Virus record (IMG/VR): IMGVR_UViG_3300022719_000041
Coordinates: 1 to 45,599 of that record
Direction: 5' to 3' (one strand)
Length of the DNA stretch: 45,599 nucleotides
From: a virus
Lineage: Duplodnaviria; Caudoviricetes
Below the pieces are notes generated by a model, which did no database searches, had not been told where the DNA came from, and saw only the letters and a program-made list of their open reading frames with translations. Both the position numbers and the translations under genes were made by a program. Below are positions 5,739-44,515 of this stretch, in pieces (the first letter of the stretch is position 1; each line of letters starts with the position of its first letter).

Positions 5739-6089
5739 ATGGAACTGGTCAGACGTGCGCTCCCGGGCCTGATAATCGCCGGTGCGATCATCTGGTTTAC
5801 CTACCTGTTGAGCACGCTCAACGACGCCGAGCCCCGCCCTGAGAGCAGGCCGGACCCGGCCGTAGACCGTTATTTGTTGAAGGCGTCCGAGCTCCGCCTG
5901 GAGCTATTCGATCGAACTTATGAAGATCAACTGGAAATTCTCACCCTAGAGAATCAGGGATGGGGCCTGTCCTATCCGGAGGCCCGGAACGAGGCGATCG
6001 CGGAACTGGACGACGAGCGAAGCTACCTGAAAATCACTGTCAACGACTATCGCGTCGCTGTCGGCGAAGTTCCCGAAGTGTCTCCCTGA
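5739..6089 (+). CDS. Opposite-strand accessory membrane-anchored protein (moron-like)
   Basis: N-terminal TM (LPGLIIAGAIIWFTYLL); extended -10 TG-C-TAAATT (5724-5732) lies 6 nt before the ATG. Confidence 0.6.
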   Translation: MELVRRALPGLIIAGAIIWFTYLLSTLNDAEPRPESRPDPAVDRYLLKASELRLELFDRTYEDQLEILTLENQGWGLSYPEARNEAIAELDDERSYLKITVNDYRVAVGEVPEVSP

Positions 6090-9000
6090 CCACCCGCATT
6101 CGGTCCTCGAACTCTTTCGGGCTGATCCGTGCATTTCGCCCACGAGTAGCAGCTCGGCGGGCGTTGGAAACCGACTGACTGGTCGGTCGCCACGTCGGAA
6201 TCTCTGTGCGGACGATCGAACTGATCCGGCTGTTCGGGATTCCCGCGTCATCAAGAATCCGCCGGATCTCAAAGTCACTCAAACCGGAAACCCGGACTGC
6301 GCGCACAGCATCGTGTACATCTCGGAATGCCGTCTTCCACCGCTCATCGGATTGCAAGACCGCATTGCGGATTTCGCGCTCAGACATCGGATTCGGGTTG
6401 CGGAGCGCCCGGTACAGCGGATTTCGGGATTCTCGGTAGGACCTGTTGAAGTCGAAGCCCCGGAATTTCAGGGAAGTCTCCGGGTCCGCCGTGGTCAACC
6501 GGAACCCGATCCAGCCCAGTGCCTCGTCGGCCTTCTTGTATTCCTTGCCGTAGCTCGTGACCTCGCCGTGCAGAGCTTTGAGCGATCGCTCGATGTTCGC
6601 CGCGATGCCCGGCTGCAGCCCCTTCCGAAGATGCTCCAGGGACTTGATTGCCTTGTCGATCTTGGACGCTGATTCGTCGTAGACCTCTCCGCCATCCAGC
6701 CGCTGGTTGAAGGCAACCTCACCGATCGCCGTGGCGGCAATGTCCGGTCCGAGGAACGGCCCGAGCAATTCCTTCAGCGCCTCACCCACCTTTTCCTGCA
6801 CACCCTCGTTATTCCCGTTCATGACCGCCCGAACTGGCAGTTTCAGGTAGGCGTAGGGGTCCAGGTGCGACAGGTCCAGATACCGGATATTGCCCTCCTC
6901 GTCCGGCGGCATGTACGCGAACTGCGCGTTTCTCTGCCAGGGCGCAGCCATTTCCCGGATCGCCTCGTCCTCCTCGTCGTCGATGCCGAACATGGCCATC
7001 AACGTCATCCCCACCGCAGAAGCCCCTGCTCCCGCTGTCGCCATGCCCACCATGCGCCTTGCCGCCATGCTCGTCCGCCCAGCCGCCAGGTCTTCTCGGA
7101 CAATGCGGAATTGCTGACCGGTCGTCCTCGCGATCTCCCATGGGAAGGAGACAAACGTGCCGGCCCCCGGGAACCGTCTCAGCCAGCGCACAGACTCAGG
7201 AACCATCGAATACGTGGGGTAGCCGTTCCTGATCCGGTCCGCGGCCATGGCCTCGGCCTCAGCCTCATTCATCCCGCTTTTGACCAGGGCCTGCTTCTCG
7301 TTCTCGAACCCGATAATCTTCCAGAAATCGTCACCGGCCCGGTAGATCTTGGTCGCCACGTTCAGTGTGCCTTTCAGGGCACGGGCCGCGATGTTCCCGC
7401 TATACGGGTCGGTGCTCATCACGTCCTCGAGCGCAGCCCGCATCTCCCCGGCGCGAGGATTATCGTGCAGAACGCCCAGCCGCACCAGTTTTTTCAGGTA
7501 CTCGTGGCGATCGGCGTTGTTTGAGAACAGGTCCGCCCAGGTGTGTTGGGCAGCCCGCTTGGAGTGGCGCCAATCGAAATGCCCGTTCATCACCGTGAAC
7601 ATGGACGCCGAGTAAAAGTTCCGAAATGACGTGGTGGGACTGAGCACGGTCTTCCCGTACTTTACTGCTGAATTCATTCTCAGCGCCTGCTTGTATAGCC
7701 CGCTCAGAGAATCGACGTTGACAAAATCACGTAGCGCCTTCGCAAATTCAGGCGTAGCGTATAGCCCGCTGAGCGGGACCATCGTGTCATCGGCCCACGA
7801 CGATATTTCCGTGCTCATGCGGCCAGATTCCCGCGTGGACAGGAACTCGCCGAGCCCGTCTTCCCGGACCTTGGACAGGAAGTGATGGTTTGCCACTAGA
7901 CTGCCCATTTTGGTCAGCGAGCGCGCGAAGTTCATGCGCGGATCCGTGTGCTCGCCCATCAACTCCCGGATCTCGGGCGCGATGTCCTTGCGCCTTTTCA
8001 GGATCGACAGGTCCTTCTGGCCCAGCAGGCCGGAGGACAGAAAACCGACCATACCGTCCTGATCGGTCCGGAGAATCGCGTTGATGATACCCTCGACGTG
8101 GTCCTCGATCTCCTTGTCGCTAGCCTCCGAGAACTCGTCCTGGGCGCGTACCCGTTCGTTCAGGAATTCGCGCGCACGCTCAATGACCTCTGCTGGCGGG
8201 CTCCACTTCTCATCGTCGAATACCCGGTACGAGCGATTCAGGTACTCGCCCTTGTTGGATTCGATCGTCCGGATGGTCCCGATCTTGCGGGCGATGAGCC
8301 CGCCCACATTCGGCAGCCCCTGAATGGTCTCGATCGCCTGCTCGTCACCTGCCAGCGCCGCATCCAGATTGTCCAGGAATACCTGGCGGTTTGCGTCGTC
8401 CAGTGACTCCGACGCGAACCGAACCTCGTCGATCAGCACCATTTGAACCTGTCCGGAAAGACGATCAAGCGCGCCGCGCATCACGTCCAACGCATCGCGA
8501 ACCTCCTGATCCAGCCCCTCGACCTCCCGGCCGGCCAGATATTCGTTCATCTGCTGCCGGTCGGCCTCCGGGATACGGGCATAGAATCGCTGTCCGAACG
8601 CGCGCCGAGCCGCTTTCGTGAAGTCCGCGGTGAAGAACTGGGTATCGAGCTCGATCTCGTTCTTGATCCCGTGGGTCTCGATATGCCGGGCGAACGCTTT
8701 GGGATGCAGCAGGCCCTCTTTCGTGAACAGCTTTTTGGCCCACTTCTTGTGCGCCTTCTGCTCGTCAAGTGACGGGTCGCTGGTCTGAACGGTAATGACC
8801 TTGCCGTCCGAATCCCTGCCCATGTAGGCGGTAGTCGTGAAGACTTCCTTGCCGGGTTTGACCCGCTCGCCGGATTCGTCGGCCCTGTAGGTTTTTGACC
8901 GCGAATACCGGATGTCTGGGTTGTCGGGATCGAAGGTGCCAACGTTGCCGGTGGCGGATTTGATCTGGGTTGGATCAAACACCACCCACGTCTCCGCATC

Positions 9001-12000
9001 TTCACTGAAATTCCCCTCCGGGAAATGGACGCTATCGTACCCCTGCCGCTCCGCTTGTTCCGCAAACCCCTCATTGGTATCAATGGCGGACTCTTGGCCG
9101 TTCACCATCGGCGTCATATCGTCAGTGAACTCAACCACCATCGGGTTTTCAGCGCGCAAGTAAGCAGACGTTATATCCCCGTCCATGCCCACGTACTGCC
9201 CAGCAGTCCTGCGATTGGTGGTAAACCATGATCCCGGCTCTCGACGGCCAGGTTCAAATTCCGTAATCCCAGGCTCAGCGCTCCCATGGTAGACCACCAG
9301 CGGATTGCCATCGGCATCCACCACCCTGCTGTTGCCAAACCATCGACGAAACTCAGGTGTTTGCGTCTGATCGGCTGAGGCATTCGCCGGCACCGGCGCG
9401 TTCTCCGCGATCTTGCCGTTGAACATGACCACAACGTCCTCGTTGCGAACGTCCTGGGTCACCTCCGGGCTCATCATCCGACGACCGCGGTCACCGAGCC
9501 GTTGGCGTTCCTGGGTATTGCGCGCCTCGACCTCGCCGGCCAGGCGATGGTAGGCGTCAAAAGCGTCCTGATCCTGAACGCGGGTTTTCTTCCAGGCCTC
9601 ATCGCGCCGGGTCACCGCGTCGATGAACTCCCGGACCGTCGGGTCGCCGAATCCACCAGCGGCCTCGACGGCCGCGTAGTAAGCGTCCCGGTTCTCGGCC
9701 ATTTGCTGTTCCTGCGCCGGCGTCGCGATCTCGCGCAAATCCTGATCCGCGTGCGGCGACATCGGGTTGATACCCAGCGCGCCCATGATCTCCTGCCGGT
9801 CATTGTTCATCCGTTCGAACGTGGCCGCGACCTCCGGAATCTGCCTGCCGATACGCCGGACTTCTGTCTGCGCCCTGCGGAACCTGTTCTCGGCCTGCTG
9901 AATCAGAGCGTCCCGCGCACCGCGCGGCGAACCTCCGGTGGCGAACCCTTCGACGTGCTGGATGCCGTGCTGAATCTCATGCAGCAGCGTGCTGAACTGC
10001 TGCCGGGCACCCAGATCGGCGTTGATGGAAATCGTGCGGTTATCCCGATCCAGCCGCCCGAACGTGGACTCGCCCATGCCCTGGCTCGACCGGACCGTCA
10101 TGTCCCGCAATTCCGGGTACGCGGCAAACAGCGCCGGGTGGTCGATAACGCGTTCCAGCGGCTCGGTCCAGACCTTGCCGACCGTCTTGTTCGGGACCGG
10201 CAGATACCGGGCGTCCGAATCGTTGATCTCGAAGCGCCACTTTTTGTCCGGGCCGCGGAACCAGCCGGTTTCTTTGCGGATCGTCTCAGGATCATCGCCA
10301 CGGCGGAGACGGTCGCGGGCCTCGACCAGCGTCTTGCGATCTGCGGTTTCCGCCCGAACCCCGGCGAACGAGTACATCGCCGGCGCATAGGCCGAGCCCT
10401 GCTGTTCATGGAGCCCATCCACGACCCGCTGTACGGAACCGCGCGCCAGGTGCGCGATGTCGTTGGCCGAGAAGTCCCGGGCCAATCCGTACCGCGACAG
10501 GAATTTCCGGACCAGCCGACGAATTTCGGCGATGATCTGTTTGAGCTTGCTGGTTGTCGCCCCGCCCTCGGCCATGTAGGCGATCGTTTCTTCCCACAGG
10601 GCGCTCTCAGGCTTGCCCTGGAGCGTTTCGTCGGCCTGGGCACGCCGATGGGCGGCCAGCGCCTCCTGGGCGCTTCTGGACCGGCTCCCGCGCTCTCCGG
10701 CGCGCACCTGCCGCTTGATCTGGCGTACCAGCCGCTTGTAGCTGCCGGCCTCGGCCTCGTCCATCATCGACTCAAGACCGTGGTGGACGCCGACCTCGTG
10801 CAAGATCAGGCCGCGCTCGGAGCCGGGGGCGATGTTGTCCGTCGCCAGCCAGATTTCGCCGTTGATCCACGCGCCGGCGGCGTCGGGCGGGTGGTTTCCG
10901 GGCCAGTCGGCCGGGGTATTCGTCACGTTGACCAGACTGGAGCCGAGCAGCGCGTTCTGGGCCTTTTTCGTCAGCGTGTCTCGGACGGCCTGTTCGGTGG
11001 TTCCCGAGAAGCGTTGACCGCTGTCATTGCTCTGGGGTACACTGTCATCGGACGAGGTAGAGTCCTCGGAGGAGGGCTCAGGAAGCGACGACCGGTTCGC
11101 CTCTGCCTCAAGGTAGTCGCGAACCGTAGGCACTCCTGGATCAGTACTGCCCGGCAAAGCACCTGCCGCGGGGTTGCCGCCCAGGGCCTCGTCCAAACTT
11201 CCCTTTTTCTCCCGCATTTTCTTTGCGATCTGGCGATCAGTGACCCGATATACCGAGGCCACACGGAATGATCCATCTCTCATCCGCCGGAAATCGACGC
11301 GGACTGCCGGGATCTGCCCAAGCTCTCCTTGCCGGACCAGCGTGATGCGACCCGCTGCATGCGGATACCAGTTTTCGGGCCGTTCAAGAACGAACTCAAC
11401 ATCTGCCTGCGCATCCTGCTCGGACCCGTAGTGCTCAGGGTGGCGACGGGCAAGTTCGTCGAAATCGGCAGTGATCCGCTGCGGCTGGTCGAACCCCATC
11501 CAACGCCAGGTACGGCGGGGGACCTGCACTGCCTGGCGAGAGTATCTAATTTCCGGCTCGCGAACCATCGCCTCGCTGATCTCGAAGTCCCGATTGCGTC
11601 CGGTATTGCTCCGGAACCCGAAGCGCCGATAGAACCTCTTGAGCCTGCCCACCGACGAAGCACCAAAGTCCGCGCTCGGGTCCACGGCGATTCGCTGCCC
11701 GGTACGATCAGCGTAGTCGGTGAGCTCCTGCATGAACTCCGTCCCAAGACCGCGACTTCGCTGGCCACGCGGTGCGACGATTTTGTCCAGCCGGATCACG
11801 CCACCGCTTTCTCGAGCGTACAGATCGAGCCGGTCGGACCAGCGGGCAAGCAGGTCATTGAGGTTACGACGGGAATATCGCGCTTCCTGCGCCCTTACTT
11901 CCGGCCCTTCTTCTTGTGCCGCCCGGCCGCGCGCTCGCCCGGCTTCTTCGTCGCGTTGTGAATCTTGGCCGCGCGTTTCTGTGCCTTCTTCTTCGGCACG

Positions 12001-15000
12001 CCCTTCTTGCGCAGTTTGTCTCTGATCGCTTCGTAGCGTTTCGGCATCGGGGGTCTCCGTGGTTGCGGGCTGTTGATCGGGGGTTAATGCGGCGCGTCTG
12101 AATTGCGGGCTACTATCAACCGGACGAACACGATCAACATGCGCCGCAACGTGAATCTCGCCATCCTGAAAGGCATCGTCAAGCCGAACATCTGACGGGT
12201 CAGCCCGAACCTCAACCGTCGCATCACCATACCCTTCTGCGTAGCCCGCCGCCCTGGTCGAGAAGAACGCCTCGTTCGTGTTCTCCGCAGAGACAAAGCG
12301 GCCCGTCTCGCGGATACGCTGTGCGGTTTCTGGAGTTGTCCGGTGGTAGAGCGTGATCGTGCCGTCTTCATTGACCGGAACCGGAACGCCGTTCAGGTCT
12401 TGAAGGGGCGACCCGCCCTGGTCTAATGGCGCTTCTTGACCCGCCGCCTGCTCCTCCGTGGCCGGCTCGCGATGAATCTCGCCGGTAATCGCGTTCAGGA
12501 CCTGCCAGTCGCCTCCTGCCGGCGCCTGGTCGATTGCCTGCTCCACGGTCTTGAAGTGCTGCTCGCTTTTTTCAGGGCGGTAGGTGACGAGCATATATGG
12601 ACGGTCGGGGTCAACCGTGGCCGGTTGGTCGTGGACGTTCGTGTACTCCAGGCCCGGTTGTTCGTGAGACGGGTTCTCGAACCCCTCGCGCTCCAGCTCG
12701 CGCCCGTACTCGGATGTGCGCGGCAACGTCGGCTCCGGCGGCACGAACTGGTCCGATTTTTCTGCACTTCCTACCCTTTGACTTTCTCCGGCATTTGTGG
12801 TACGTGGCTCGCCCTCGACCGCCTTCGGCCCGAACATATCGGACTGCGGCGGCCGTGGACCGGCAAACAGTTCGCCCTCGCCCTCGATCATGTCCGGGGC
12901 CTGGTCGGCGCGCTGCTGGCGAGCCCGGTCGGCGTCGGATTGCGCTTGGGCGGTCTGGTCGACCGCGCCGGCTAGGTCTTGCCCTTCGCCTTGTTGTCCG
13001 GTTGCCGTCGACGCTTCAACTTCCTGCCCTTGTTGCGCTTGGCGTTCTCGAGCACCTGGTCCTTGATCCTCCGGAACCGCTTGGTTTCCTTGGCCATTTC
13101 TTTCTCCTTGGCTGATCTGCCACAGGCCGCGCACGGTCTCGGCCTCGCTCAGATCGGCGTTCATGATTTCAATCGCCGCGGCCTCGTCGAGCGCGCGCGC
13201 GTCCTCGAATAAGTCGTACAGGGCGCGGGCTTCGGCATCCATGTCCGCCAGGTACTCGTCGTTTGCGTACCGGAAACCGGCCAGATCGCGGCCCCGGTCG
13301 GCCATGTCGCGGCCCAGAGCATCAATCTCCGCGTCCGAACGCTCACCCCGGGCGATACGCTGCGCTTCCCGGTACTCGGCGAGCATTTCCTGCCAGGTTT
13401 CGGGCGCTGTGCCGTCAGCAGCGTTCAGCCGTTCTGTCTCGATCTGGCCGAGCATTTGGCTGATCACTTCGGTCTGCCTTGATCCAAGCCGCTTGCCCTC
13501 AAGCGCCTTGTTGACCGCGTTTTTCACGTCGTCGGTCGACACCTTGAGCTCAGCGGCCATTGACTGAAACCACATCGGATTCACCGAAGGGCTGCGAACA
13601 ACCTGGTCAGTGCCGTAGTCCCAGAGAAGATCGCCGGTGTTGTCCCGCCGAGTTGCGCCCGGGGCTGGAACCAGCGCGATGCCCCCGCCTTTGGTCAAAT
13701 CCCTGGTCATCTGCAGCAGGCCCGCGCGGTAGGGCCGGCGCATTAGCTTCGGATCGTCCAACCCTTCCGGAAGCTGCTCGCGGCCAACCGGCCCGATCAG
13801 CGGGTTCCTGGCCGCTGCGCCTCTTCCACCCTCTGCCGGGGCCTGCTCTCCTTCCGGCGCCTGATCCCCACTCTCATCCCGATTGATCTCGCGCTCCAGG
13901 CGCTCGATGAGCTCGGCATCCGTAATCTCCCCGGTATCTTGGCCCGCCTCGGCGTCACGTTCGGCCTTGGCCCGGCGCATTGCCTCGGCCATGACCGGAT
14001 TCGGCGGCGCGGGCTCGACGAATTGCTGCGGGTCCTGTTCGTGCTTCTGTGCCTCGGCCTGCAGATAGTCGGCGTCGAATTGACGGCGCTGCGCCTGCTC
14101 ACGCTGCCTGTAAGCGGCTTCTTCCTGTTCGCGGCGCTGCTGCTCGGCGCTGCGGTCTTGCTGCTGCTCGGCCTGAACCCGCGGCAATCCCTCGTCCATG
14201 GAGCCGATGAACTGGTCGGCCAGGTTGAACCCTGCGGCCACGTCCGGGGCCTCGTCCTCGAGCATGGACCGGGCTTTGCCGATGTCGTCCTGTTCGATCT
14301 GCGGGGAAAGCAGGGGAGTCTGCGCGGAAGGGGGAAGGCGGTCGAACGGGGGTAGGCCGGATACGGGGTTTTCCGGGCTTGGCGGCTCCTGAGACGGGCG
14401 CGGTTGTGCGCCTTGGATTGCTCCGGCACCGGCACCGAACAGACCGAAGATCGCACCCTGCCCTGTCGCCTCGCCAGCGCCTTCGAGAAGCATCTGCTCC
14501 GGGTTGATCTGCTGGGTGGCCAGATTGGCGAGAATTTTGCCGGTGCCTTCTTCAGCGCTCTCGGTGATGGATTCGCCGGCCAAACCCCGGGCACCACCTG
14601 CAATAGCCCCTCGCGCGCCGCCCATGCCACCCCTGACGCCGCCGCCAAGAACGCGTTCTACCGACCGCGCGCCCGGGATGGCCAAGTTGAGTCCGGCCGA
14701 CGTGACGGCACCGGCAAGCGCATTCCAGCGCGAGAGTTCAAGCGCGATCTGCTCTTTTGCCTGGTCCTCCGGGACACCGGACTCAATGAGCTTCTGGGTC
14801 GCCTCGTTGGCCGCCCAGAGCGCGTTCTCCTGGCTAAGCAACTGATCGTAGGATTCGCCACCCACGTCCGAGCCATGAAGTGCTGCGCCCGTACCCACAG
14901 CGCCCCCGGTGGCTGCCGCTCCGGACGCGACTGCGCCCTTGCCGGACATCTTTGCGATCGTACCGGCCACGCGTCCACCGATGCCGGTCGCAATCAGGTT

Positions 15001-15462
15001 CGGCGCCTGTTCGGCCAGTGTGTTCGACAACAACACCGGGTCCGATGCGATCGACTTGACCGTCGTTCCAAGCTGGTTCCAGAAGCCCTCCTGGCCTTCA
15101 ATCTCGGCGCGCATCCGTTCTTGCCGGGCCTTGAGTTCATCGCTATGGCGGCCCGACCAGTATTCCCGACCGGCCTCGCCCTGACGGCGCGCCCAGTTGT
15201 CCATATCGACCGTTGCCAACCCATAACCGGTGCCGACCATGCCCAGCAGGGCATTTGAGCCAGCGCCGAATGACCGGCCAATATCGGCAGCGCGTTCGCC
15301 CACCGTGTAGGGATCGTGCTGCATGTCCAGCGCCCGCCCAATAACCGCCGGCGAGCCGTACTCGCCCATCAGGTCGACTTTGCCGTCGCCCTCGGGCAGA
15401 TCGTCCAGCCAACTGCCGTCAGTGCCCTCTGCTTCGGGCATCGCGTCCAGCCAATCAGCCAC
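6040..15462 (-). CDS. Giant polyvalent internal virion (ejection) protein, 3140 aa
   Basis: Last gene of the ejection-protein block. Contains an ART-like module (TLYHRTT), a GNAT (RGQRSRGLGT..LKRFYRRFGF), a BECR-like module, a zincin (LILHEVGVHH), LPD23-like GWFRGPDKKWRFEIND with LLHEIQH, and ART-PolyVal-like FRRWFGNS..PLVVYHGS..VVFDPTQIKSA. Confidence 0.9.
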   Translation of the reverse strand: MADWLDAMPEAEGTDGSWLDDLPEGDGKVDLMGEYGSPAVIGRALDMQHDPYTVGERAADIGRSFGAGSNALLGMVGTGYGLATVDMDNWARRQGEAGREYWSGRHSDELKARQERMRAEIEGQEGFWNQLGTTVKSIASDPVLLSNTLAEQAPNLIATGIGGRVAGTIAKMSGKGAVASGAAATGGAVGTGAALHGSDVGGESYDQLLSQENALWAANEATQKLIESGVPEDQAKEQIALELSRWNALAGAVTSAGLNLAIPGARSVERVLGGGVRGGMGGARGAIAGGARGLAGESITESAEEGTGKILANLATQQINPEQMLLEGAGEATGQGAIFGLFGAGAGAIQGAQPRPSQEPPSPENPVSGLPPFDRLPPSAQTPLLSPQIEQDDIGKARSMLEDEAPDVAAGFNLADQFIGSMDEGLPRVQAEQQQDRSAEQQRREQEEAAYRQREQAQRRQFDADYLQAEAQKHEQDPQQFVEPAPPNPVMAEAMRRAKAERDAEAGQDTGEITDAELIERLEREINRDESGDQAPEGEQAPAEGGRGAAARNPLIGPVGREQLPEGLDDPKLMRRPYRAGLLQMTRDLTKGGGIALVPAPGATRRDNTGDLLWDYGTDQVVRSPSVNPMWFQSMAAELKVSTDDVKNAVNKALEGKRLGSRQTEVISQMLGQIETERLNAADGTAPETWQEMLAEYREAQRIARGERSDAEIDALGRDMADRGRDLAGFRYANDEYLADMDAEARALYDLFEDARALDEAAAIEIMNADLSEAETVRGLWQISQGERNGQGNQAVPEDQGPGARERQAQQGQEVEASTATGQQGEGQDLAGAVDQTAQAQSDADRARQQRADQAPDMIEGEGELFAGPRPPQSDMFGPKAVEGEPRTTNAGESQRVGSAEKSDQFVPPEPTLPRTSEYGRELEREGFENPSHEQPGLEYTNVHDQPATVDPDRPYMLVTYRPEKSEQHFKTVEQAIDQAPAGGDWQVLNAITGEIHREPATEEQAAGQEAPLDQGGSPLQDLNGVPVPVNEDGTITLYHRTTPETAQRIRETGRFVSAENTNEAFFSTRAAGYAEGYGDATVEVRADPSDVRLDDAFQDGEIHVAAHVDRVRPVDSSPQFRRAALTPDQQPATTETPDAETLRSDQRQTAQEGRAEEEGTETRGQDSQRDEEAGRARGRAAQEEGPEVRAQEARYSRRNLNDLLARWSDRLDLYARESGGVIRLDKIVAPRGQRSRGLGTEFMQELTDYADRTGQRIAVDPSADFGASSVGRLKRFYRRFGFRSNTGRNRDFEISEAMVREPEIRYSRQAVQVPRRTWRWMGFDQPQRITADFDELARRHPEHYGSEQDAQADVEFVLERPENWYPHAAGRITLVRQGELGQIPAVRVDFRRMRDGSFRVASVYRVTDRQIAKKMREKKGSLDEALGGNPAAGALPGSTDPGVPTVRDYLEAEANRSSLPEPSSEDSTSSDDSVPQSNDSGQRFSGTTEQAVRDTLTKKAQNALLGSSLVNVTNTPADWPGNHPPDAAGAWINGEIWLATDNIAPGSERGLILHEVGVHHGLESMMDEAEAGSYKRLVRQIKRQVRAGERGSRSRSAQEALAAHRRAQADETLQGKPESALWEETIAYMAEGGATTSKLKQIIAEIRRLVRKFLSRYGLARDFSANDIAHLARGSVQRVVDGLHEQQGSAYAPAMYSFAGVRAETADRKTLVEARDRLRRGDDPETIRKETGWFRGPDKKWRFEINDSDARYLPVPNKTVGKVWTEPLERVIDHPALFAAYPELRDMTVRSSQGMGESTFGRLDRDNRTISINADLGARQQFSTLLHEIQHGIQHVEGFATGGSPRGARDALIQQAENRFRRAQTEVRRIGRQIPEVAATFERMNNDRQEIMGALGINPMSPHADQDLREIATPAQEQQMAENRDAYYAAVEAAGGFGDPTVREFIDAVTRRDEAWKKTRVQDQDAFDAYHRLAGEVEARNTQERQRLGDRGRRMMSPEVTQDVRNEDVVVMFNGKIAENAPVPANASADQTQTPEFRRWFGNSRVVDADGNPLVVYHGSAEPGITEFEPGRREPGSWFTTNRRTAGQYVGMDGDITSAYLRAENPMVVEFTDDMTPMVNGQESAIDTNEGFAEQAERQGYDSVHFPEGNFSEDAETWVVFDPTQIKSATGNVGTFDPDNPDIRYSRSKTYRADESGERVKPGKEVFTTTAYMGRDSDGKVITVQTSDPSLDEQKAHKKWAKKLFTKEGLLHPKAFARHIETHGIKNEIELDTQFFTADFTKAARRAFGQRFYARIPEADRQQMNEYLAGREVEGLDQEVRDALDVMRGALDRLSGQVQMVLIDEVRFASESLDDANRQVFLDNLDAALAGDEQAIETIQGLPNVGGLIARKIGTIRTIESNKGEYLNRSYRVFDDEKWSPPAEVIERAREFLNERVRAQDEFSEASDKEIEDHVEGIINAILRTDQDGMVGFLSSGLLGQKDLSILKRRKDIAPEIRELMGEHTDPRMNFARSLTKMGSLVANHHFLSKVREDGLGEFLSTRESGRMSTEISSWADDTMVPLSGLYATPEFAKALRDFVNVDSLSGLYKQALRMNSAVKYGKTVLSPTTSFRNFYSASMFTVMNGHFDWRHSKRAAQHTWADLFSNNADRHEYLKKLVRLGVLHDNPRAGEMRAALEDVMSTDPYSGNIAARALKGTLNVATKIYRAGDDFWKIIGFENEKQALVKSGMNEAEAEAMAADRIRNGYPTYSMVPESVRWLRRFPGAGTFVSFPWEIARTTGQQFRIVREDLAAGRTSMAARRMVGMATAGAGASAVGMTLMAMFGIDDEEDEAIREMAAPWQRNAQFAYMPPDEEGNIRYLDLSHLDPYAYLKLPVRAVMNGNNEGVQEKVGEALKELLGPFLGPDIAATAIGEVAFNQRLDGGEVYDESASKIDKAIKSLEHLRKGLQPGIAANIERSLKALHGEVTSYGKEYKKADEALGWIGFRLTTADPETSLKFRGFDFNRSYRESRNPLYRALRNPNPMSEREIRNAVLQSDERWKTAFRDVHDAVRAVRVSGLSDFEIRRILDDAGIPNSRISSIVRTEIPTWRPTSQSVSNARRAATRGRNARISPKEFEDRMRVVRETLRELRRQRRDSR
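11014..11043 (+). promoter_or_regulatory. Antisense sigma70 promoter inside the polyvalent gene
   Basis: TTGACC (11014-11019), 18 bp spacer, TACACT (11038-11043). Confidence 0.6.
11050..11195 (+). ncRNA. Putative structured antisense RNA (~145 nt) embedded in the polyvalent gene
   Basis: Begins 6 nt after the -10; GGACGAGG (11050-57) pairs with CCTCGTCC (11187-94); internal hairpins at 11060-11079 and 11093-11126; pyrimidine tract follows. Confidence 0.5.
11895..12047 (-). CDS. Nested +1-frame basic protein (50 aa) inside the polyvalent gene
   Basis: GGAG-N7-ATG; MPKRYEAIRDKLRKKGVPKKKAQKRAAKIHNATKKPGERAAGRHKKKGRK*. Confidence 0.65.
   Translation of the reverse strand: MPKRYEAIRDKLRKKGVPKKKAQKRAAKIHNATKKPGERAAGRHKKKGRK
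12972..13097 (-). CDS. Nested +1-frame basic protein (41 aa) inside the polyvalent gene
   Basis: AAGGAG-N6-ATG; MAKETKRFRRIKDQVLENAKRNKGRKLKRRRQPDNKAKGKT*. Confidence 0.6.
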   Translation of the reverse strand: MAKETKRFRRIKDQVLENAKRNKGRKLKRRRQPDNKAKGKT

Positions 15463-18717: not shown

Positions 18718-19640
18718 CCGCCAATGCCGGGAATGACCGGCGGCATCGGCGGCATCTGCTGGGCTGCGGGCACGGCACCACCGGACAGCAGCTCCGGCGG
18801 GATTGCGCCCCAGGCGTCGTTGGTGAACCCGGGAAACATCTGGCGGACATTCTCCACGGCCGCCGTCTGCTGCTCAGCCGACAAGTTCGGGTTACTGTAG
18901 ATCGCGTTCACCGAATTCCAGTAGTTGCCGAACGCCTGATTGTAGTTCTGCGAATCGAGCGCCCGATCCGCGCGCCCGGCGTTCCATTGATCCATCTGTT
19001 GCCCATGCCGGAACTGGTCGCGCGCGAGCTGCTGCTGCTGGTCGAACATTGAACCCTGCAGCGCCCGGCTCGCGTTCGCGTTGCGCATGGTGTTCGTCGC
19101 CGACTGGTTCCGGTTCGCGACATCGCCGTAGCGCGCGGCATCGAACTGCGCGATCGGCAGCGCCCGGTCAATCGCCGCACCCATCGCGTTGCCGGCGGCA
19201 ATCGACGAGTTTCCGAGCCCGCGCGCCGAAGCACGCTCCACGCCCATCTGGCGCGCACGGTCCATGTACGGGCTATCCCAGTCCAGCAGGGAATCGAGAT
19301 GGGTTCGCATGAGCTGGTCTTGCTCGACCTGCTGGAGGTCCGCTGATGCACTGTGGTTGCCGACCGGGGAGAAACCGAACCGTGTCCGATCCTGGTACTG
19401 AAACCCCCGGGCAACAGGCTCAGGCTGCGCCTGCCCCTCGATCTGGGGGCCGACCGGCTGCGTTGTTTGCGGCGGCCCTTCGGGCAGGATGTGTCCGTGA
19501 TCGGAGGATCCTACGCCTCCCCGGGGCCGCAAGAACCGCTGCTGGTCGAGCGGAAGATGGTTTTGCTCCCAGAGCCCGTCACGTCGGTTTCCGTTCTCTG
19601 GGTTGATATAGCCTTGTCCAGGCAACAATGGTGCGGGCAT
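18714..19640 (-). CDS. Internal virion / DNA-transfer protein
   Basis: DSPYMDRAR...ARGLGNSSIAAG...ALPIAQFDA motif of podoviral ejection proteins. Confidence 0.75.
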   Translation of the reverse strand: MPAPLLPGQGYINPENGNRRDGLWEQNHLPLDQQRFLRPRGGVGSSDHGHILPEGPPQTTQPVGPQIEGQAQPEPVARGFQYQDRTRFGFSPVGNHSASADLQQVEQDQLMRTHLDSLLDWDSPYMDRARQMGVERASARGLGNSSIAAGNAMGAAIDRALPIAQFDAARYGDVANRNQSATNTMRNANASRALQGSMFDQQQQLARDQFRHGQQMDQWNAGRADRALDSQNYNQAFGNYWNSVNAIYSNPNLSAEQQTAAVENVRQMFPGFTNDAWGAIPPELLSGGAVPAAQQMPPMPPVIPGIGG

Positions 19641-44407: not shown

Positions 44408-44444
44408 TCAGAAAGACACCTTGGGCTATTGAATTTCAAAATTC

Positions 44445-44486
44445 ATAGTTTTTCCTGTTGACAAAGATTATAGTATTCCCTATGAT
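44445..44486 (+). promoter_or_regulatory. oL/PL promoter and operators
   Basis: TTGACA (44458-63), 17 bp, TATGAT (44481-86); ATAGTTTTTCCTGT 44445-58 and ATAGTATTCCCTAT 44470-83. Confidence 0.85.
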
Positions 44487-44515
44487 TGAGCCTGGTTCAC
44501 ACGGAAGGCCGCTTC

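Follow-up and report, generated by a model that had tools for sequence, protein, structure and literature searches.

The type III toxin-antitoxin systems (ToxIN, TenpIN, CptIN, AbiQ and AbiF/RCd22) are among the closest described counterparts of the locus considered here, in that a non-coding RNA lies beside an RNase toxin, neutralisation through an RNA-protein complex is proposed and phage-borne examples are reported (10.1101/2025.04.15.648962). The RNA of those systems is described as an upstream, co-transcribed repeat array (10.1101/2025.04.15.648962), whereas the RNA dealt with here is a single, convergent four-way junction placed on the toxin's own gene. The toxin here is a predicted colicin-D-like BECR domain of a virion protein, unlike the type III toxins. 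Some type I antitoxins, such as RatA, SymR and RalA, are convergent on the toxin gene, and there is a likeness of layout in the complementarity between RNA and toxin mRNA, but the fold and the toxin found here are unusual for that type. A further likeness is to STnc6030 of the Salmonella prophage BTP1, an antisense transcript in prophage late genes which is ~500-790 nt long and for which the source describes neither a conserved fold nor a tie to an RNase domain (PMC7067206). The RNA considered here, in contrast, is 115-180 nt across its copies, covaries and moves with its domain.

A BECR RNase is present in as many as a quarter of polyvalent proteins. The prediction that PBECR domains are RNases dates from 2017, yet we know of no target for them and of no way in which the phage might spare the producing cell; to our knowledge, the known antidotes for exported BECR toxins are proteins. 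Polymorphic toxin systems also possess orphan immunity genes, which are toxin-free copies of the antidote present in several variants, and the RNase-free RNA copies described below resemble them in both respects, the candidate antidote being an RNA. The solved relatives of the BECR fold mostly cut tRNA, the tRNases colicin D and CdiA are countered by protein immunity (PMC9086364), where the candidate here is an RNA, and the immunity protein of colicin D is described as tRNA-mimicking in the title of a reference given there. PBECR domains occur in polyvalent, portal and MuF proteins (PMC5512222; 10.64898/2026.08.28.747851) and combine a His in the N-terminal helix with a Ser/Thr in the last strand; Iyer et al. 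(PMC5512222) left their targets open and suggested RNA binding for the inactive MuF-C. The portions of these two sources that were available make no mention of an associated RNA and contain no occurrence of the word "antisense", and the literature consulted held no report of an RNA linked to PBECR domains. The phage RNA screen of Fremin et al. 2023 (PMC10690425) gave no match in the files searched, and since three further files, probably alignments, lay outside the search, the present RNA may be among its candidates without a name.

The locus and its predicted RNA

The window, by which is meant the whole stretch of DNA that was analysed, is a virus sequence of 45.6 kb that is 78% complete. Its genes include those for a terminase, a portal-type adaptor, a major head protein, tail fibres, lysis, a replication initiator and a repressor-like HTH protein, and because of this gene set the source is probably a temperate tailed phage. 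Divergent promoter-like sites at 44440-44490 (TTGACA-17-TATGAT on the plus strand, TATAAT on the minus strand) stand near the repressor-like genes and are likely to be a lysis-lysogeny switch. The 3140-aa product is called a polyvalent protein following the usage of Iyer et al. 2017 (PMC5512222). The RNA together with its promoter overlaps residues 1413-1483 of that product, directly past the module at residues 1309-1420. The features are as follows.

6040..15462, minus strand: gene for a giant polyvalent virion protein of 3140 aa with GNAT-like, BECR-like, zincin-like, LPD23 and ART-PolyVal modules
11203..11538, minus strand: predicted PBECR-like RNase domain, protein residues 1309-1420 (His at 11440-11442, Ser at 11254-11256)
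11014..11043, plus strand: sigma-70-type promoter-like site TTGACC-N18-TACACT, with a predicted start near 11049-11050
11049..11198, plus strand: predicted non-coding RNA of ~150 nt, a four-way junction antisense to residues 1422-1471, found by held-out covariance models
11050-57 with 11187-94, plus strand: P1, closing stem of 8-9 bp that joins the 5' and 3' ends of the RNA (GGACGAGG and CCTCGTCC respectively)
11060..11079, plus strand: P2, hairpin GAGTCCTC-GGAG-GAGGGCTC with a GGAG loop
11085..11131, plus strand: P3, arm with a short basal stem, an asymmetric GA-rich internal loop and an interrupted stem at 11093-11126 (CGGTTCGC/GCGAACCG, inner CTGCC-TCAA-GGTAG)
11135..11185, plus strand: P4, arm closed by CCTGG 11135-39 and CCAGG 11181-85 (pair probability 0.88)
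11199..11224, plus strand: U-rich tract after P1, mirroring lysine codons of the last helix of the domain

A preliminary description of this DNA had placed a promoter with a start near 11050, a closing stem, the GGAG hairpin and the arm with the inner CTGCC-TCAA-GGTAG where they are listed above. All were found there, the promoter having its -35 hexamer at 11014-19 and its -10 hexamer at 11038-43 with an 18-nt spacer, and the helices of P1, P2, P3 and P4 having pair probabilities of 0.79-1.0. A further hairpin that it proposed, GCGG-GGTTG-CCGC, had a probability of only 0.03 and gives way to the CCTGG/CCAGG arm, which is larger in the window and in L002 than in most relatives. The P2 loop of other copies is GGAG, GGAA, GGGA, GCGA or GUGA, and once GGAU. 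A loosely cloverleaf-like outline without a T-loop had been suspected, and there are indeed four arms and no T-loop consensus; ARAGORN called 0 tRNAs in the window. Rfam 15 gave no match in the window at the gathering threshold and, apart from a single weak and unrelated row, no family match for 16 loci at E values of up to 1. The U-rich tract is present as first described; a terminator and promoter scan of the window called no canonical intrinsic terminator there, and a weak terminator is possible.

Smaller features of the RNA were read by eye. CCA lies 0-3 nt past P1 in 11 of 15 close copies and in none of five readable distant ones, it being noted that NTG-GNN codons can yield NCCA. Kink-turns follow a consensus of C-stem, 3-nt bulge and tandem G-A / A-G, and a pattern of this kind stands at the base of P3 in seven of 12 close copies, the window having AG for GA. 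A sponge for CsrA/RsmA was considered on the basis of the motif of these proteins (GGA loops, and CAGGA in the joint between P2 and P3) and was set aside as a lead only, the long form of the RNA and L025 being without CAGGA.

Taken on its own the window offers unremarkable evidence for such an element, fold energy being unexceptional, and it is the comparison with relatives that goes far beyond chance. Promoter-like sites are at chance level in the window alone (one in 10 kb against 1.4 expected). The fold z against dinucleotide shuffles is -2.75 on the plus strand and -1.44 on the minus strand, 14 of 124 windows of the giant gene have a lower fold score than the RNA site, and against 500 synonymous recodings, the control named in the preliminary description, the energy is not significant (z -1.46, p 0.07). 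Elsewhere in the giant gene, the lowest fold z against synonymous recoding belongs to the antisense of the zincin-like module (10435-10887, plus strand; down to -3.5 with 25 shuffles per window), a stretch in which a promoter-like site was looked for and none found. Two small open reading frames were also seen. One, of 50 codons and rich in Lys/Arg, lies at 11895-12047 in another frame of the same (minus) strand of the gene, in the linker before the GNAT-like module, with GGAG ahead of its ATG as read by eye; the other, an antisense frame of 18 codons at 12139-12195 (plus strand), has a -10-like hexamer TACTAT upstream near 12112 and overlaps the end of a phrog_6170-like module at 12094-12435.

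The neighbouring module had been called BECR-like, and structure prediction is in keeping with this. A phmmer search with the module returned 67 proteins, the window's own included. The AlphaFold2 model (22-row alignment, pLDDT 83) has two helices followed by strands at 56-60, 64-69, 78-85 and 91-99. The best Foldseek row was BrnT with an E of 0.019, none being under 0.001; the best VIA-align rows were a Salmonella TA toxin, CdiA toxins (tRNases), colicin D and BrnT, with middling Z values of 4.7-6.0 (under 8), rmsd 3.0-4.1 and 73-88 residues aligned. His33 is kept in 61 of 61 aligned relatives and Ser95 in 65 of 66, so that the predicted fold, the His/Ser pair and the location, within polyvalent proteins or joined to portal or MuF proteins, are all those of PBECR domains. 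No profile among Pfam PBECR1-5 or MuF_C passed for the window, the best result among 22 relatives was PBECR3 at E 0.063 in one of them, and an atlas look-alike (PBECR3/2 at 0.90, 166 shared features) serves as a lead. Since fold and His/Ser pair match while no Pfam PBECR profile passes, the domain is regarded as a PBECR-like family lying outside Pfam PBECR1-5 at threshold, in distinction to the PBECR domains already described (PMC5512222; 10.64898/2026.08.28.747851), and it is predicted to be an RNase. The protein overlapped by the RNA had been described as an unstructured linker, which does not hold throughout because the AlphaFold2 prediction includes a helix, that of an LxxAEYL motif, at module residues 139-149 (pLDDT 76-86), beneath P3.

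Conservation of the fold among relatives

Relative loci (L002-L033) were reduced, near-identical copies being dropped, to 11 close and six distant distinct loci besides the window. RNAalifold gave a four-way junction in a close set with two-sided changes at 22 of 34 pairs and a matching four-way junction in the distant set with two-sided changes at 20 of 28. Covariation across homologues of the module, on which the preliminary description had made its proposal depend, was likewise evident in a gap-free alignment of seven close relatives that left out the window, where 16 of 35 pairs change on both sides. Paired cells in these seven amount to 93.8%, against 82.1% in shuffles (0 of 500 reach the observed value) and 32-39% when the structure is slid along the alignment, with the qualification that the shuffle control ignores relatedness and that the structure was derived from those same sequences. 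A covariance model built from the seven relatives with the window held out (R1) found a single site in the window, 11051-11175 on the plus strand, with 54.5 bits and an E of 1.6e-12, the next-best score in the window being 11 bits. At the antisense site past the domain R1 gave an E below 0.011 in all close loci and in three of six distant ones, being weak on L018, L021 and L023. A second model made from the six distant loci only (R2) found the window weakly (E 0.043), with P1, P2 and P4 in agreement.

As covariance-model scores include plain sequence likeness, here 47-62% to the window, coding was tested as a cause of the fold. The window retains 32 of 35 consensus pairs, while 5000 synonymous recodings retain 21.1 +/- 2.5 with a maximum of 29, a test for which the 3' arms of these two helices, P1 and P4, had been placed manually and which is circular when applied to six training sequences. 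Several synonymous sites are also fixed, Ala being GCC in 10 of 10 cases, Pro CCT in seven of seven and Ser TCN in 11 of 11. G-U cells outnumber A-C cells by 33 to nine in 12 sequences, among which both L009 and L012 (96% alike) were kept and some rows are out of register in P1 or P4 and were scored as mismatches, and because of this excess and of the GNRA-like loops the plus strand is favoured. A promoter-like site ends 5-14 nt before P1 in 15 of 16 distinct loci (5-8 nt in 13 of them), against a mean background rate of 0.5% for the rule applied (a TTG or TT-rich -35, 16-18 nt, TAnnnT), which was set after the loci had been viewed and with P1 starts assigned by the analyst. That count excludes the truncated L010 as well as L012, which nearly duplicates L009, and L014, which fails the rule, has a TG-extended -10. 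On these comparisons the element is almost certainly a real, conserved and strand-specific design for an RNA gene.

Linkage to the domain and copies without it

The domain is internal in the polyvalent genes of the window, L002, L008, L015, L018 and L024. It is C-terminal on a P1-like portal beside DarB-like and Ulx genes (phrog_1497, E 8e-163), and C-terminal on Mu-like portals (L019, L023) or on MuF (L021). The RNA accompanies it in every one of these architectures. At each locus it lies downstream on the other strand, with one copy per domain, tandem pairs being confined to RNase-free elements. The sense frame meets a TAG stop within the RNA in L009, L011, L012, L031 and L040, where the promoter, P2 and the 5' arm of P1 are retained all the same. 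A long form of the RNA (L009, L011, L040, L050, L051) has two added hairpins after P2, which start with an invariant AAUGUGGUUCC. It was also observed that a P1-like prophage with the portal-RNase fusion is nearly unchanged in records from Comamonas, Burkholderia, Pigmentiphaga and Ideonella (L012, L026-L029, L034). Nitrosomonas marina Nm22, Comamonas nitrativorans and Ideonella dechloratans are among the bacteria with relatives.

Antisense promoter-like sites number two in the window's gene, three in L058, one in L059 and four in L060, and in each gene one of them follows the domain. In L060, whose product has 2218 aa, three of the four follow the PBECR-like domain, PBECR1 and LPD3, those of PBECR1 and LPD3 being ~30 codons past the domain; none follows ART-PolyVal, and the fourth is a weak site within LPD23. 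These counts support the view that it is the RNase domain, and not other modules, to which the RNA is tied. The sequences after PBECR1 and LPD3 in L060 (~9060-9200 and 10365-10510, minus strand) fold differently from the four-way junction (z -1.9 and -2.9), which suggests that each RNase-type family may have its own RNA and that LPD3 may belong among those families. Nine of 13 loci with Pfam PBECR2 or PBECR3 (L061-L073) have an antisense site no more than 300 nt downstream, often before a folded stretch, but several of these loci are AT-rich, with a high chance rate, and the count serves as a lead only.

Searches for further occurrences gave little. The module had no tblastn match in 50,697 phage records and one matching record among plasmids, blastn of the RNA found no match in plasmids, the protein profile found no genome beyond G002 itself in 401 genomes of its order, and the RNA-first pattern in viral contigs gave four matches, all on contigs already among the loci. 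The RNA-first search gave matches in three of 151 genomes of one family, the same three among 121 in the genus. Nitrosomonas marina (G001) has two portal-fused loci in two prophages, one with the short form and one with the long form. G142 and G087 each have a tandem pair of a short and a long RNA, in opposite orders, where the protein profile matches only the tail that overlaps the RNA, tblastn found no domain core on either stretch, and the sense frames are broken by stop codons or an 8-nt duplication. The pair in G142 is preceded by C4/isrK RNAs, HicB and HTH genes, a small terminase and an SLT protein, and that in G087 by a tRNA, an integrase, a weak int-alpA match and a DUF3987 primase-helicase; because of this flanking gene content the elements are considered satellite-like. 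Rfam identified C4, isrK, tRNA and int-alpA elsewhere on these contigs and nothing at the RNA copies, so that, as in the window and the 16 loci, no known family was matched.

The evidence from these orphan copies comes from two genomes, in which the pairs stand near contig ends. Their short copies retain 34 and 32 of the 35 pairs, with three compensatory changes each relative to the nearest relative, and the G142 copy folds unaided to the consensus (z -3.99). A TG-extended -10 was seen by eye just upstream of three of the four copies. The short copy of G142 is 87% identical to L025 with an identical run of 44 nt, and the longest such run in the G087 copy is 14 nt. The occurrence of tandem RNAs without an RNase and in broken reading frames points to action in trans, and recognition by shape would suit copies that drift from their relatives while keeping their structure.

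Two further observations concern the surroundings of the pairs. On L050 a TTGACT-17-TAATAT site and a leader of ~100 nt (9305-9440, plus strand) lie ahead of the first orphan copy; the leader has no Rfam, R1 or R2 match and a fold z of about 0, and is possibly a third RNA, of another family. On L051, at ~18830-18870 (plus strand), the G087 pair is preceded by a remnant that looks like the spacer and 3' end of another copy, hinting that this array may once have been longer.

Possible functions of the RNA

The reading preferred here, for which we would put the prospects at about even on the sequence comparisons, is that the RNA is an antitoxin or immunity factor which would bind and block the predicted BECR RNase of the virion protein. 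Transcription by host sigma-70 polymerase would take place in lysogens and during early infection, and an end-closed, tRNA-like shape would give the RNA stability. On synthesis of the virion protein it would bind the colicin-D-like RNase and so spare the producing cell, and it would also shield lysogens when kin inject that RNase, a fresh cell being without the RNA. Overprinting would keep antidote and toxin together during the shuffling of modules, and satellites could borrow RNA variants and thereby become immune to the RNases of their helpers. A shape-recognised antidote fits best because the coupling to the RNase domain is tight, unpaired bases are fixed, the outline is closed and tRNA-like beside a fold that mostly cuts tRNA, and toxin-free arrays of variants exist. 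An RNA antitoxin, decoy or substrate had been the proposal of the preliminary description, and, as regards the antitoxin, the conserved promoter and fold, the covariation, the plus strand, the linkage to the domain and the RNase-free satellite copies all fit one acting in trans, the function being what we infer from them; the analogy that was drawn to type III pairs may hold as a way of working and fails as membership, the RNA being convergent and single.

Several points count against the antidote. Every base of the RNA is necessarily complementary to the mRNA, and it could always act by antisense pairing; in satellites it could serve to silence the portal mRNA of helpers, the 44-nt run in G142 being long enough for pairing; and the tRNA-like shape has neither a T-loop nor a tRNA call behind it, with an NCCA after P1 that is partial and explicable by codons. 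To these are added the predicted nature of the RNase activity, the middling structural Z values, the lack of a passing Pfam PBECR model, the ordinary fold energy of the window and the small number, two, of genomes with orphan copies. An expression look-up based on L027, with 0 reads in three raw-read runs and contig runs that were flat or DNA-like, decides neither way.

An important consideration is therefore whether the RNA acts on the message instead of the protein. In such a scheme, resembling type I systems, it would pair with the mRNA past the RNase coding region and lead to RNase III decay, damping leaky expression of the toxin in the lysogen and excluding superinfecting kin, while satellites would cut the late mRNA of their helpers. 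The convergent, overlapping layout and perfect complementarity agree with this, as do the precedents of STnc6030 in the late region of BTP1 (PMC7067206) and of the satellite sRNA SviR, reported to act on helper genes (10.1101/2022.04.08.487710), and both variants are present in the orphans and likewise in the two prophages of G001. However, a closed four-way junction with GNRA-like loops would probably be a poor pairing agent, the invariant synonymous codons (GCC, CCT, TCN) imply sequence-specific RNA contacts for which cis-antisense action has no need, silencing of a virion operon does not require a site fixed after each RNase-type domain, and the orphan copies drift by compensatory changes; we consider antisense silencing the main rival of the antidote, though a less likely one.

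It may also be asked whether the RNA serves the RNase rather than restraining it, being packaged or made early as a cofactor, guide or dedicated substrate that directs or activates the enzyme or is processed by it. The same linkage and structure data can be cited for it, and Iyer et al. (PMC5512222) leave room for it by treating PBECR targets as open and suggesting RNA binding for inactive MuF-C, but the RNA has no variable spacer-like segment and the maintenance of two variants in RNase-free satellites is poorly explained by an activator or a substrate, which makes such a role distinctly improbable. That promoter and fold only reflect conservation of the protein sequence or have their effect in the sense mRNA, no RNA being made from the other strand, agrees with the unremarkable window-only statistics, the predicted helix beneath P3 and stems that are possible on either strand (31 of 35 pairs for the window on the sense strand), but a third of the pairs is lost on recoding, fold and promoter survive stop codons and the frame-broken orphans, the strands are asymmetric and the promoter recurs in 15 of 16 loci, so that this can be given hardly any credence.

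To return to the antidote, its general form is that virion-delivered BECR RNases of phages would each be paired with a structured immunity RNA of their own, overprinted in antisense on neighbouring codons, of which satellites would collect RNase-free arrays, and that these RNAs would make up a new class of RNA antitoxin; we advance this tentatively, as somewhat short of an even prospect. A built-in RNA partner would explain how the producing cell is spared, and it makes PBECR domains testable, toxin and antidote both being defined and short. If true, there would be a new layout for RNA antitoxins (overprinted, convergent, a four-way junction), an RNA gene and a protein would be co-evolving in the same bases, satellites would gain a new way to resist or exploit their helpers, and the pairs of toxin and immunity protein, together with their orphan immunity genes, would have a counterpart made of RNA.
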